Assembly (NCBI GenBank): GCA_016215705.1
Contig: JACRIR010000130.1
Coordinates: 1,456-65,455 of the forward strand
Source: Candidatus Poribacteria bacterium
GTDB lineage: Bacteria; Abyssobacteria; SURF-5
Direction: 5' to 3'
Length of the DNA: 64,000 nucleotides
The stretch's first letter is position 1. Every line of letters begins with the position of its first letter. Positions 34,831-36,832 of the stretch are shown here, piece by piece. The notes below the pieces were generated by a model. It worked only from the letters and a program-made list of their open reading frames with translations. It was not told the origin of the DNA and searched no databases. The translations under genes and the position numbers were made by a program.

Positions 34831-34861
34831 TTACGCTTTGCCCTTTTACGCTTTTACCCTT

Positions 34862-34880
34862 TGGGCCGCCGAAGGCGGCC
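34862..34880 (+). other. GC-rich hairpin downstream of VR (candidate DGR target-recognition hairpin/cruciform; may double as terminator)
   Basis: GGCCGCC-gaa-GGCGGCC is a perfect 7-bp stem about 40 bp 3' of the VR, the position where a hairpin/cruciform required for mutagenic homing lies in the characterised Bordetella phage BPP-1 DGR. Confidence 0.5.
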
Positions 34881-34893
34881 GAATTCTCAGAAT

Positions 34894-35232
34894 ATGCCAC
34901 AAGAAGTAGACGCCATCACCAGGTTGTATGATTATGTGCTCTGGCTTATACCCAAGCTCGAGAAGTTTCCTCGGAGCCAGAAGTTCTTGCTGGCCGACCG
35001 AATGGAGAATCTGCTGCTGGATATTCTTGATCTCCTGATTGAAGCTGCCTATTCCCGCGAGAAATCGGCTTCTTTGAAGGCGGCGAATTTGAAGCTGGAG
35101 CAAATGCGATACCTGATAAGGCTTTCGAAGGACTTGAAGCTAATCGACCTGAAGAGTTATGAATTCTCTGCTCGCGCCATTAATGCCGTCGGGGTTTCCA
35201 TCGGTGGCTGGCTCAAATACAGCGAACAGTGA
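34894..35232 (+). CDS. avd: DGR accessory variability determinant (Avd; four-helix-bundle protein)
   Basis: About 112 aa: MPQEVDAITRLYDYVLWLIPKLEKFPRSQKFLLADRMENLLLDILDLLIEAAY... fits the Avd / 23S-rRNA-IVS four-helix-bundle family. Start taken at ATG 34894. The stop overlaps the RT start. Confidence 0.75.
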   Translation: MPQEVDAITRLYDYVLWLIPKLEKFPRSQKFLLADRMENLLLDILDLLIEAAYSREKSASLKAANLKLEQMRYLIRLSKDLKLIDLKSYEFSARAINAVGVSIGGWLKYSEQ

Positions 35233-36323
35233 AAACGCACAAAAATCTATACAGCGGAATCACCTCCTTTGATAACCTGCTTTTGGCGGCAAGGAAAGCG
35301 CAAAGGGGCAAGAGATTCAAAGAGTCTACTGCGGTTTTCAATCTGAATCTCGAAAGAGAGCTTTTGTGTATCCAGAAGGAACTGCAGGAGATGACCTACC
35401 GGCATGGCGGGTATCAAGATTTCTACGTCTACGATCCGAAACGGAGGCTGATCAGCGCGGCTCCATACCGGGATCGGATTGTGCATCATGCCCTTTGCAA
35501 CGTCATAGAACCGATATTTGATCGCATCTTTATTTACGACACTTACGCCTGTCGAAAACGAAAAGGTGTCCATGCAGCCGTCGATAGATATAACGAATAT
35601 GCCCGCAAGTACACATATGTGCTGAAATGCGATATTCGGAAATATTTTCAGAGTGTTGATCACGAGATACTTCTGGAAATGATCTCCCGAAAGATTGCAT
35701 GCCCACAAACAATGTGGTTGATCACGAAAATCATCGCTTCCCGGGACGATAAGAGCCATGTCTCATACTTCGAGAATGATACCCTTTTCACTCCATTCGA
35801 GCGGAAAAGAGGAATCCCGATCGGGAATCTCACCAGCCAATTTTTTGCCAACGTGTATTTGAATGGTTTTGATCATTTCGTAAAGGAGATTCTTGGACAG
35901 CCGTACATTCGCTATGTTGACGATTTCGTTGTGTTCGGGAATTCAAAAGGACGACTGCATGAAGTCAACGAAAAAATACAGGCTTATCTTTCCTCGTTGC
36001 GCTTGAACATCCACGAGCGAAAATGCCGGATATACAGAGTAAAGGACGGTATTACGTTTCTCGGCTATCGTATTTTCCCAACCCATCGGTTACTCAAGAA
36101 AGACAACGTGCTGAGGATGCGGCGAAGGTTGAAGAAACTCAGCCGTAAATACAGCTCGGGCATGGTTTCGCTTCCGGCAATCAAGCTGAGGATACAAAGT
36201 TGGATTGGCCATGCCGGTCATGCCGACACATTTCGGTTGAGAGCAAGAATGCTTGCGGATGCAGTCTTTCAAAGGGGTGAGACCAGAGGTGCTGCGGGGC
36301 GGCTCGTGGAACAACAACCGTAA
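35229..36323 (+). CDS. DGR reverse transcriptase
   Basis: RT motifs including YVDDFVVFG (YxDD) and the DGR-specific IGNLTSQ motif ([16 protein letters not shown]) that replaces the retroviral QGxxxSP. GTG start overlaps the avd stop. Confidence 0.88.
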
Positions 36324-36400
36324 CAATGCCCGGTGTGCGAACCGTAACAGGAACAACAGGAACAACCGGAACAACAACGTGGGTTTCCGCTGTGCTAGGA
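36289..36400 (+). other. DGR template repeat (TR)
   Basis: Adenine-rich (many AAC codons: GTGG AAC AAC AAC CGT AAC AAT ...) 112-bp cognate of the VR. Overlaps the 3' end of the RT ORF and is followed by several perfect hairpins (36424-36450, 36489-36510). Confidence 0.9.
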
Positions 36401-36753
36401 CTTGGATTCCTTGGTTGGCGCCGGAGCCTTGTCTTTCACGGAAGACAAGGGTGTGCGCCATCCAAGTCCAGGTCTCGCTCCTGTGTTGGCTCTCTCGAGC
36501 CAACCGAAACAAAAAGCTCCCTGCTCGGGCTGGTAGCGTATGTGCGAACGCTCGGGCAGGGAAATATTTCATTGATTTATTCGGGTAACATGCCGTTGAG
36601 ATGCAGCTCGCAATAAGGATCTATCGATGCATTCGGCTGAGATTCGTACTATCCAACTAATATGACGGGCAGTCAGAGGACCCGTGTGGTTCTCTGACAC
36701 CCGGCCTGCCGCTGCGTTCCCCCCTTAAGACCGGAAGCCTTCTTCGAGGCCCG

Positions 36754-36797
36754 GCTTATTCGGGGACACCATGCGGCATGGCGTCCCCGAATAAGCG
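36754..36797. repeat. REP-1 palindromic repeat copy (consensus-length)
   Basis: GCTTATTCGGGGACACCATGCGGCATGGCGTCCCCGAATAAGCGGG. Confidence 0.8.
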
Positions 36798-36832
36798 GGC
36801 CGTTTCGCAGTAGAAGCGGAAGGAGGCTTTCC

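Follow-up and report, generated by a model that had tools for sequence, protein, structure and literature searches.

The 64,000-nt stretch of DNA analysed here (the window) contains an intact DGR in the order target gene with VR, avd, RT and TR, and inverted repeats lie both beyond the VR and in the non-coding DNA beyond the TR. We asked whether these stems belong to the DGR, how far any DGR RNA extends beyond the TR, and what such an RNA might do. Our reading, to which we give a probability of about 0.8, is that the region holds two known kinds of cis-acting DGR element, a DGR RNA and a target hairpin, within a target(VR)-avd-RT-TR cassette.

The DGR locus and the structured RNA around its TR

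The genes and repeats of the locus are:

31561-34830, + strand: target gene (Pfam Metallophos, NACHT and FGE-sulfatase/C-type-lectin fold), with the VR at its 3' end
34709-34822, + strand: VR, 3' end of the target gene; 34822 is the last base identical to the TR
34894-35232, + strand: avd accessory gene (Pfam bAvd, PF22296, E 1e-17)
35229-36323, + strand: DGR reverse transcriptase (RT) ORF (RVT_1, E 2e-28)
36287-36400, + strand: TR, as delimited by alignment with the VR

Alignment of the VR with the TR gave 18 mismatches, all 18 at TR adenines. The RT was 38% identical to the bRT of BPP-1 (E 1e-68), with homology stopping near residue 341, and its ORF runs 37 nt into the TR; BLASTP returned no alignment between the Avd of the window and that of BPP-1. 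The gene order is that of cassette architecture B2 (avd-RT-TR) of Wu et al. (2018, PMC5758913). According to Dore et al. (2024, PMC10907252), a cellular DGR clade diversifies NACHT/STAND C-type-lectin 'antigen sensors', and the Metallophos, NACHT and C-type-lectin/FGE-sulfatase VR domains of our target gene resemble these. A term search of the two papers found no mention of an RNA structure or hairpin after the TR.

Between the TR and a DsrE-like gene beginning at 36833 lies a non-coding stretch of 432 nt (36401-36832). A promoter and terminator scan of 34700-37000 found nothing on the + strand, and an Rfam scan of 31000-38000 matched no family; sub-threshold Rfam matches to C/D-box snoRNA fell inside the DsrE-like ORF and were taken as chance. 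The structured RNA consists of 36401-36562, directly after the TR, together with a 12-nt strand (36273-36284) just upstream of the TR. Its parts, with their proposed counterparts in the BPP-1 RNA, are:

36273-36284, + strand: 5' strand of the stop duplex; lies within the RT ORF and stops 2 nt short of the TR; pairs with 36471-36482
36398-36407, + strand: TR-3'-end strand GGACTTGGAT of a template:primer-like duplex; perfect 10-bp complement of 36460-36469
36417-36459, + strand: stem-loop 1 with its base (GGCGC/GCGCC helix, conserved internal loop, 9-bp stem); putative counterpart of the Avd-binding stem-loop
36460-36471, + strand: primer-like strand ATCCAAGTCC plus the conserved A36470-G36471, with A36470 as candidate priming adenosine
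36471-36482, + strand: 3' strand of the stop duplex, GGTCTCGCTCCT; pairs with 36273-36284
36485-36504, + strand: stem-loop 2, GTTGGCTC-tctc-GAGCCAAC, with an 8-bp stem and a TCTC loop
36505-36517, + strand: A-rich single strand CGAAACAAAAAGC; putative counterpart of the A-minor adenosines and 'Thumb Ring'
36518-36562, + strand: stem-loop 3, with an imperfect 13-bp stem, 2 G-U pairs and a 19-nt apical region; putative counterpart of the RT-binding stem-loop

The 9-bp stem of stem-loop 1 (36427-36435 with 36442-36450) reads CCTTGTCTT-tcacgg-AAGACAAGG at 36427-36450 and is capped by a CACG loop closed by a U-G pair; C36422, G36424 and G36453 of its internal loop are invariant. Among 26 distinct sequences, A36470 and G36471 were each kept in 88%. 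The stop duplex comprises 12 bp, two of them G-U. Stem-loop 2 is followed by CGAAACAAAAAG, and the A-rich strand was unpaired in all folds, with A36508 and A36514 each 88% conserved. A conserved GUA (36533-36535) and GA (36546-36547) mark the apical region of stem-loop 3. The core (36388-36567) folded at -91.6 kcal/mol against -62.2 +/- 4.4 for shuffled sequences (z -6.75, 0/200). In the minimum-energy fold of the isolated RNA, 36398-36406 paired in a shifted register with 36467-36475, in competition with the stop duplex.

An earlier note, made from the sequence of the window, had named three stems, one after the VR and two after the TR. All three exist, at coordinates that differ from its own by 2-6 nt: the post-TR stems lie at 36427-36450 (given as 36424-36450) and 36485-36504 (given as 36489-36510), and the post-VR hairpin, whose sequence and spacing of about 40 nt were right (41 nt), at 34864-34880 (given as 34862-34880). 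The further imperfect stems that it placed up to about 36700 are also present, one at 36518-36562 (13 bp, with G-U pairs) and one at 36672-36698 (11 bp). That note mentioned neither the duplex between the TR 3' end and the spacer nor the long-range pairing to a strand that precedes the TR, in the RT frame.

Conservation, covariation and extent of the RNA

Single-sequence minimum-energy parsing gave inconsistent element limits in distant loci, and covariance models R1 and R2 were used instead. Searched against 54 RT-homolog loci, model R2 detected the post-TR element in 37 (E<0.01); these represent at least six phylum-level groups (Deltaproteobacteria, Planctomycetota, Cyanobacteria, Alpha-, Beta- and Gammaproteobacteria, KSB1 and Ignavibacteria MAGs); in relatives it was also visible by eye. 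The proposal that a structured RNA lies 3' of the TR, which was to fall if homologous DGRs shared no structure, is thus upheld by a conserved, covarying element. In 13 loci (L005, L009, L013-16, L025, L034, L035, L039, L040, L043 and L044) it occupies the classical spacer position between TR and RT.

Covariation was measured mainly on an alignment fitted to the covariance model. In it, 87.9% of cells were paired, compared with 37-45% when partners were slid; double changes occurred in 45 of 48 pairs, and the covariation score was 0.692 against 0.19 for shuffles. The signal was spread over the helices: the TR-3'-end duplex (helix 1) was 87.5% paired with double changes in 7/8 pairs, stem-loop 1 (helix 5) 89.8% with compensatory changes in 10/10, stem-loop 2 (helix 6) 91% with double changes in 9/10, and stem-loop 3 92.6% with all 13 pairs compensatory. 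The helix sequences themselves differ completely between loci.

A structure-blind MAFFT alignment of 20 sequences, analysed with RNAalifold, recovered stem-loop 3 de novo, with compensatory changes in 16/16 pairs and 91.9% pairing. It was the only element recovered in this alignment, because indels misalign the 5' half. When its structure was supplied by hand, stem-loop 1 was 66% paired on the structure-blind alignment, since one clade was out of register. Stem-loops 1 and 3 together were 81.8% paired on this alignment, against 38-51% when slid, with a score of 0.752 versus 0.232. The + strand is fixed by 137 G-U cells, which outnumber the 43 A-C cells. Folding energy was good on both strands and uninformative for strand choice.

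The stop duplex differs entirely in sequence from locus to locus, and cognate strands paired at a mean of -18.3 kcal/mol versus -12.2 for non-cognate combinations (n=20, permutation 0/5000, p<2e-4). Its 5' strand keeps its position, ending 2-10 nt before the TR in most loci. The boundaries of TR/VR homology fall near both duplexes, 2 nt away on each side in the window and within a few nucleotides in most of 15 loci.

How much of the tail belongs to this RNA? The earlier note had offered the whole tail, taken as roughly 400 nt, as a candidate for the spacer; the conserved DGR RNA ends at about 36562-36567 and accounts for some 165 of the 432 nt. Beyond it lie:

36568-36750, unstranded: remaining tail, outside the conserved DGR RNA; unstructured and unconserved
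36751-36799, unstranded: REP-like palindromic repeat with 24-nt arms, 92% complementary; the largest hairpin of the tail

It is quite improbable that all 432 nt form one extended DGR RNA, with the distal stems (36672-36698 and 36751-36799) as lineage-specific additions to the spacer. The full 36280-36832 does fold far better than shuffles (z -6.5), but it owes this to the core and the REP-like palindrome; taken by itself, 36568-36750 did not stand out from its shuffles (z -0.75), and blastn of 36562-36750 against the 54 related loci gave no similarity at E<=1, even in L001 and L002, which are 66-69% identical. The palindrome is unrelated to the DGR: nine copies occur in the window, in unrelated intergenic regions, against 1.3 expected matches. 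Not every stem near a DGR belongs to it, a caution that applies here to more than half of the tail, the REP-like repeat included.

Two other explanations of the post-TR stems concern the conserved part itself. A role as terminator, attenuator or regulatory leader, at the end of the DGR operon or for the DsrE-like gene, would suit stems that sit past the last DGR component and ahead of the following gene, where no other terminator was detectable. We regard it as very improbable, as the element accompanies the TR and not its neighbours, downstream genes differing in every locus; in the 13 loci where it precedes the RT gene, a terminator would prevent expression of the RT. No U-tract follows any of the three stems, the structure includes a strand from before the TR, and it is the unconserved part (36568-36832) that adjoins the DsrE-like gene. 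We can practically dismiss the idea that GC-rich DNA produced these inverted repeats by chance, or that the stems belong to a small protein-coding ORF (36326-36616, 96 aa). ORFs of 96-160 aa do overlap the region on both strands and the minus strand folds well too, but the compensatory changes extend across distant taxa and are also seen structure-blind, the G-U excess fixes the strand, and the wholly different helices carry indels that no ORF would tolerate.

Likeness to the BPP-1 RNA and a proposed mode of action

The DGR RNA of BPP-1 comprises the spacer Sp, between TR and brt, and a 3' segment of avd (Handa et al. 2018, PMC6182149; cryo-EM, bioRxiv 10.1101/2023.10.23.563531). At its priming site it carries GGUC-A56-G57, both nucleotides being functionally required (same sources). 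Like Sp, the window RNA follows the TR immediately and on its strand, in a DGR with RT and Avd, and the two share the order of their elements: a tetraloop stem-loop (Avd-binding in BPP-1), a strand that pairs with the TR 3' end and ends in GUC(C)-A-G, an 11-12 bp pairing with a segment upstream of the TR, a short stem-loop with adenosines, a single strand of about 12 nt, and a long stem-loop with internal loops (RT-binding in BPP-1). The window has at 36427-36450 a stem-loop of the expected kind near the spacer 5' end (9-11 bp, tetraloop), and at 36518-36562 the long 3' stem-loop; by analogy, these would bind Avd and RT, respectively.

The two RNAs also differ. Sp is 144 nt long, the window element about 165 nt. 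In BPP-1, avd contains the upstream strand of the stop duplex and the element precedes brt, whereas in the window that strand falls within the RT frame and the element follows the last gene. Stem-loop 1 starts at Sp3 in BPP-1 but 26 nt after the TR in the window, where an additional GGCGC/GCGCC helix within the TR:Sp duplex carries it, and stem-loop 2 has 8 bp compared with 2 bp. Even with its filters switched off, model R2 gave no hit in BPP-1 Sp and scored 2.8 bits at best, which argues against a common family by sequence but not against the same mode of action. The comparison with a known DGR spacer thus bore out the order of elements and not homology at the level of sequence or model. The post-TR stems and the post-VR hairpin are best read as ordinary DGR control elements, of kinds already known; the function of the post-TR RNA we infer by analogy with one phage system, to whose spacer it has no detectable sequence similarity.

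On this analogy, the TR would be bracketed on the transcript by an RNA scaffold, lying mostly in the ~165 nt downstream, that most likely holds the RT and starts and stops DNA copying. The stem-loop at 36427-36450 would grapple Avd, and the long stem-loop at 36518-36562 the RT. Pairing of the last TR bases (36398-36407) with 36460-36469 would bring the conserved A36470 beside the template, and its ribose hydroxyl could prime cDNA in cis near TR position 36396-36397; precisely where synthesis would begin is uncertain, because A36470 faces A36397, whereas BPP-1 has U there. The duplex of 36471-36482 with 36273-36284, stem-loop 2 and the A-rich strand may together act as a roadblock, such that the cDNA ends at the TR 5' edge. 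Given these start and stop roles, the two duplexes would delimit the bases subject to copying and adenine mutagenesis. At the DNA level, the GAA-looped GC hairpin 41 nt past the VR would single out the VR over the TR to receive the cDNA.

In 207 of 278 Avd-type DGRs, Handa et al. predicted cPRT-Stop duplexes and Avd-binding stem-loops, with 9 bp the commonest stem length, by single-sequence MxFold2 folding of 40 nt upstream and 100 nt downstream of the TR (bioRxiv 10.1101/2023.10.23.563531). Here, a covariance model and covariation support the whole element of ~165-180 nt, including an RT-binding-type stem-loop beyond those 100 nt. The reach of the cryo-EM model, in which the DGR RNA primes, guides and stops the RT, is widened from one phage to a wide range of chromosomal DGRs whose TR comes after the RT gene and whose targets are putative immune sensors. 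A covariance model of the post-TR element, which no Rfam family covers, would aid DGR annotation in metagenomes and could establish on which strand the TR lies, where it begins and ends, and where the cDNA is likely to start and stop.

The hairpin and pyrimidine tract after the VR

Two features follow the VR:

34841-34862, + strand: pyrimidine-rich conserved tract CCCTTTTACGCTTTTACCCTTT, between the target stop codon and the hairpin, with 6-mer enrichment
34864-34880, + strand: post-VR hairpin GGCCGCC-GAA-GGCGGCC, with a 7-bp all-GC stem and a GAA loop; candidate target-site hairpin/cruciform

The hairpin begins 41 nt beyond 34822 (31-81 nt in relatives), and its inverted repeat is missing 3' of the TR, where the downstream sequence is different. 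Among related loci, a GC hairpin with a G..A tri- or tetraloop followed 14 of 25 distinct VRs, compared with 39 of 4400 background windows (0.9%), in keeping with the earlier suggestion that a hairpin near the VR 3' end is a DGR feature. Stem sequences vary by locus and the loops stay GAA, GATA, GACA or GTAA. The 71-nt spacer between VR and avd had an unremarkable folding energy relative to shuffles (z -1.2), so that support for the hairpin comes from conservation and not from energy.

In BPP-1 a hairpin/cruciform is required for efficient homing, and Guo et al. (2011, PMC3240598) describe target hairpins with a 7-10 bp GC-rich stem and a 4-nt GRNA loop, 4-34 bp from the VR at a distance called 'quite flexible'. 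As in that description, the window has a 7-bp GC-rich stem after the VR and not the TR, with a variable stem and a conserved loop that is purine-rich on the sense strand. It departs from it in the loop, which is the 3-nt GAA, as in seven related loci, and not a 4-nt GRNA, and in the distance, which at 41 nt (31-81 in relatives) exceeds 4-34 bp. Because relatives share GAA (7 loci), GATA, GACA, GTAA and GCA loops, we take the triloop as a lineage variant, and the hairpin as a candidate GAA-triloop form of the known target hairpin/cruciform, for which a role in homing is suggested by analogy.

A transcription terminator, or a stabiliser of RNA 3' ends between the target gene and avd, might instead be the main function of this hairpin. 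In several relatives a T run follows 3-8 nt after it (GGCGGACGATTTTTTTG, GGCGGGCGAAATTTTTTTG and GCCCCCAAAGGATTTTTTTTG, for example). The stem in the window, however, is followed by GAATTCTCAG, at a site where the terminator scan found nothing on the + strand, and the functional BPP-1 hairpin likewise has no T run. A G..A loop on the sense strand, found in all 14 of the 14 hairpins, is needless for a terminator and fits the sequence-dependent loop of the BPP-1 element. We consider such a function unlikely, and favour the target hairpin.

The pyrimidine tract was characterised by the 6-mers CCCTTT and TTTACC, present in 12-13 of 23 VR-downstream segments from related loci versus 2-3% of background windows; the tract is not present after the TR. 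No mention of a conserved CTTTTACCCTTT tract before the hairpin was found in the available portion of Guo et al. (2011, PMC3240598). A more speculative proposal, which we hold only tentatively and think rather doubtful, is that this lineage of cellular DGRs, with NACHT/STAND C-type-lectin targets, recognises its targets through a module of its own instead of the phage-type IMH (the CTTTTACCCTTT tract plus a GAA-triloop GC hairpin ~30-80 nt after the VR), and that its TR-flanking RNA is a discrete ncRNA family without an Rfam entry. If it were true, the two duplexes would make cDNA start and stop, and hence the exact mutable window, predictable from sequence in many uncultured phyla. We also considered whether the CTTTTACCCTTT tract could pair with CAAAGGGG upstream of the TR, and dropped this idea because it is not conserved in L002. 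The post-VR hairpin of the window can alternatively be read as a 6-bp stem with the 5-nt loop CGAAG.

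DGR cassette and target gene

On its + strand the window has a complete DGR, whose avd-RT-TR order is that of cassette architecture B2 as outlined by Wu et al. (PMC5758913).

Components of the DGR cassette (window position, strand, feature)
31561-34830, +, target gene, 1089 aa, with Metallophos, NACHT and FGE-sulfatase/C-type-lectin domains (Pfam)
34709-34822, +, VR, the last 114 nt at the 3' end of the target gene (TR/VR alignment)
34894-35232, +, bAvd-family gene, after the target gene (Pfam)
35229-36323, +, RVT_1 reverse transcriptase, after avd, 38% identical to BPP-1 bRT
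36287-36400, +, TR, overlapping the end of the RT ORF (TR/VR alignment)

All 18 TR/VR differences in the alignment (18/18) fall at TR adenines. The RT ORF has no stop ahead of the TR and runs 37 nt into it (36287-36323); its homology to bRT stops near residue 341. The 432 nt from the TR end to a DsrE-like gene at 36833 are non-coding. By its Pfam domains the target protein joins a calcineurin-like phosphoesterase to a NACHT NTPase and to a C-type-lectin domain varied by the DGR; PMC10907252 describes this architecture, for which a role as hypermutated 'antigen sensor' of multicellular bacteria has been proposed. Among the loci of RT homologs, L012 is a Chromatiaceae 'ppb02' MAG.

Conservation of the RNA that follows the TR

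The core following the TR (36388-36567) folds far more stably than shuffled sequences (z -6.75), and the stems named in the earlier note are all present, 2-6 nt from where it had placed them. An RT protein search yielded 25 loci from genomes and 29 from metagenomes; their post-TR sequences, read by eye, share the motifs GTCCAG, GCCGGAG...GTGTGC, CCGAAAC and CTGGTAG...CGAAC. A covariance model of the element built from four close sequences (R1) was rebuilt from ten (R2). The conserved structure that the earlier note expected among homologous DGRs was found: R2 matched 37 of the 54 loci at E<0.01, assigned by record title to Deltaproteobacteria, Planctomycetota, Cyanobacteria, Alpha-, Beta- and Gammaproteobacteria, KSB1 and Ignavibacteria. 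In 13 of these 37, including Rhodobacterales loci L013-L016, it is flanked by TR and RT, where the spacer classically sits; the post-RT element of the window is therefore the same RNA. At one locus (L036, 1100-1311, minus strand) element and RT are on opposite strands.

In an alignment of 28 sequences (26 distinct) fitted to the covariance model, 87.9% of cells were paired, as against 37-45% with partners slid; 45/48 pairs showed changes on both sides, and the covariation score was 0.692 (0.19 in shuffles). Because that alignment had been fitted to the model, the test was redone with 20 sequences aligned by MAFFT without regard to structure. RNAalifold recovered stem-loop SL3 (36518-36562) with 16/16 pairs compensatory, and SL3 and SL1 (36427-36450) jointly were 81.8% paired (38-51% in controls), scoring 0.752 versus 0.232. 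G-U cells outnumbered A-C cells (137 vs 43), which assigns the structure to the + strand transcript. Conservation among unpaired bases was strongest at C36422, G36424, G36453, A36470, G36471, GUA 36533-36535 and GA 36546-36547, all candidate protein contacts by analogy.

Past the conserved A-G, a 12-nt strand (36471-36482) pairs with 36273-36284; the latter lies inside the RT reading frame and stops 2 nt ahead of the TR, so that its codons are under both coding and pairing constraint. This long-range duplex occurs in every locus, each with its own sequence, and the mean energy is -18.3 kcal/mol for cognate strands and -12.2 for non-cognate ones (0/5000 permutations). TR/VR homology in the window starts 2 nt past this duplex and at its other end reaches 2 nt into the TR:spacer duplex; homology boundaries lie within a few nt of both duplexes in most of the 15 loci with a mapped VR. 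The family consensus for the TR-3'-end helix is GGACUUGGAU:AUCCAAGUCC. A repeated CUUGG motif in 36398-36475 permits two mutually exclusive registers of this helix, and in the MFE fold of the isolated RNA 36398-36406 is paired to 36467-36475, a register that overlaps the stop strand and competes with the stop duplex. The two registers might constitute a conformational switch.

Correspondence with the BPP-1 RNP

From 5' to 3', the cryo-EM study of the RNP of Bordetella phage BPP-1 (bioRxiv 10.1101/2023.10.23.563531) describes a stem-loop bound by Avd; a template:primer duplex of TR and Sp that ends in the priming A56 and then G57, which is required; the 'cPRT Stop' duplex formed by avd and Sp, together with a short stem-loop and A-minor adenosines; the Thumb Ring, which is single-stranded; and a long stem-loop that binds bRT. 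The window RNA has all of these elements in identical order.

Window elements by BPP-1 correspondence (position, strand, feature)
36427-36450, +, putative Avd-binding stem-loop
36398-36407 with 36460-36469, +, putative template:primer duplex
A36470 and G36471, +, putative priming A and next G
36273-36284 with 36471-36482, +, putative stop duplex
36485-36504, +, short stem-loop
36505-36517, +, A-rich single strand
36518-36562, +, putative RT-binding stem-loop

R2 did not match the BPP-1 spacer, even with filters off; the likeness is one of architecture, without a detectable sequence match. By single-sequence folding, that cryo-EM study also predicted the Avd-binding stem-loop and the stop duplex for 207/278 Avd-type DGRs, so conservation as such was already known. 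Unlike BPP-1, the window has its stop strand inside the RT ORF, and A faces A at the candidate priming site. The earlier note correctly recognised known DGR cis-elements, with small lineage-specific variations: these two, the GAA triloop of the post-VR hairpin and, ahead of that hairpin, a pyrimidine tract.

The remaining tail and the post-VR region

As for the whole ~400-nt tail serving as spacer, about 165 nt bear this out and the rest does not. The segment 36568-36750 folds no better than shuffles (z -0.75) and blastn found similarity to it in none of the related loci; 36751-36799 is a copy of a ~45-bp REP-like palindrome, gCTTATTCGGGGACACCATGCGGCATGGTGTCCCCGAATAAGc, which has nine dispersed copies in 64 kb where 1.3 matches would be expected by chance. 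Neither segment is DGR RNA.

REP-like palindrome copies (window position, unstranded)
36751-36799, REP-like palindrome with a 24-bp hairpin, one of the nine copies
1357-1397, 14236-14276, 27679-27719, 42201-42241, further copies
43442-43482, 47741-47781, 54345-54385, 59038-59078, further copies

An 11-nt inverted repeat (36735-36745/36819-36829, 91% complementary) flanks the palindrome at 36751-36799. Its 3' arm spans the GGAGG ribosome-binding site of the DsrE-like gene, which it might sequester. Several archaeal C/D-box snoRNA models gave sub-threshold matches at 36902-36955, inside the DsrE-like ORF (best 25.9 bits, gathering score 50), taken as chance.

The folding energy of the 71-nt VR-avd spacer is, by itself, unremarkable against shuffles (z -1.2). 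Of 25 distinct VRs among relatives, 14 have a GC-rich hairpin after them, its loop a G..A tri- or tetraloop, compared with 39/4400 background windows; stems vary by locus, and loops are GAA, GATA, GACA, GTAA or GCA. The post-VR hairpin fits the hairpin/cruciform that Guo et al. (PMC3240598) found necessary for efficient homing in BPP-1, differing from the element as described there in its 3-nt loop and greater distance from the VR. In several relatives a T run lies a few nt past the stem, and there the hairpin may act secondarily as a terminator as well; the window hairpin has no T run at that distance.

Conserved tract before the hairpin (window position, strand, feature)
34841-34862, +, pyrimidine tract CCCTTTTACGCTTTTACCCTTT, between the target stop codon and the hairpin (6-mer counts)

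Core 6-mers of this tract follow 12-13 of 23 VRs of relatives, versus 2-3% of background windows, and do not follow TRs. The tract could act as a signal for the target (IMH-like) or for avd expression. A VR lies downstream of the TR in L004 (7502-7614) and in L002, where it is a second VR (8522-8599) with its own GCCGCC-GCA-GGCGGC hairpin.
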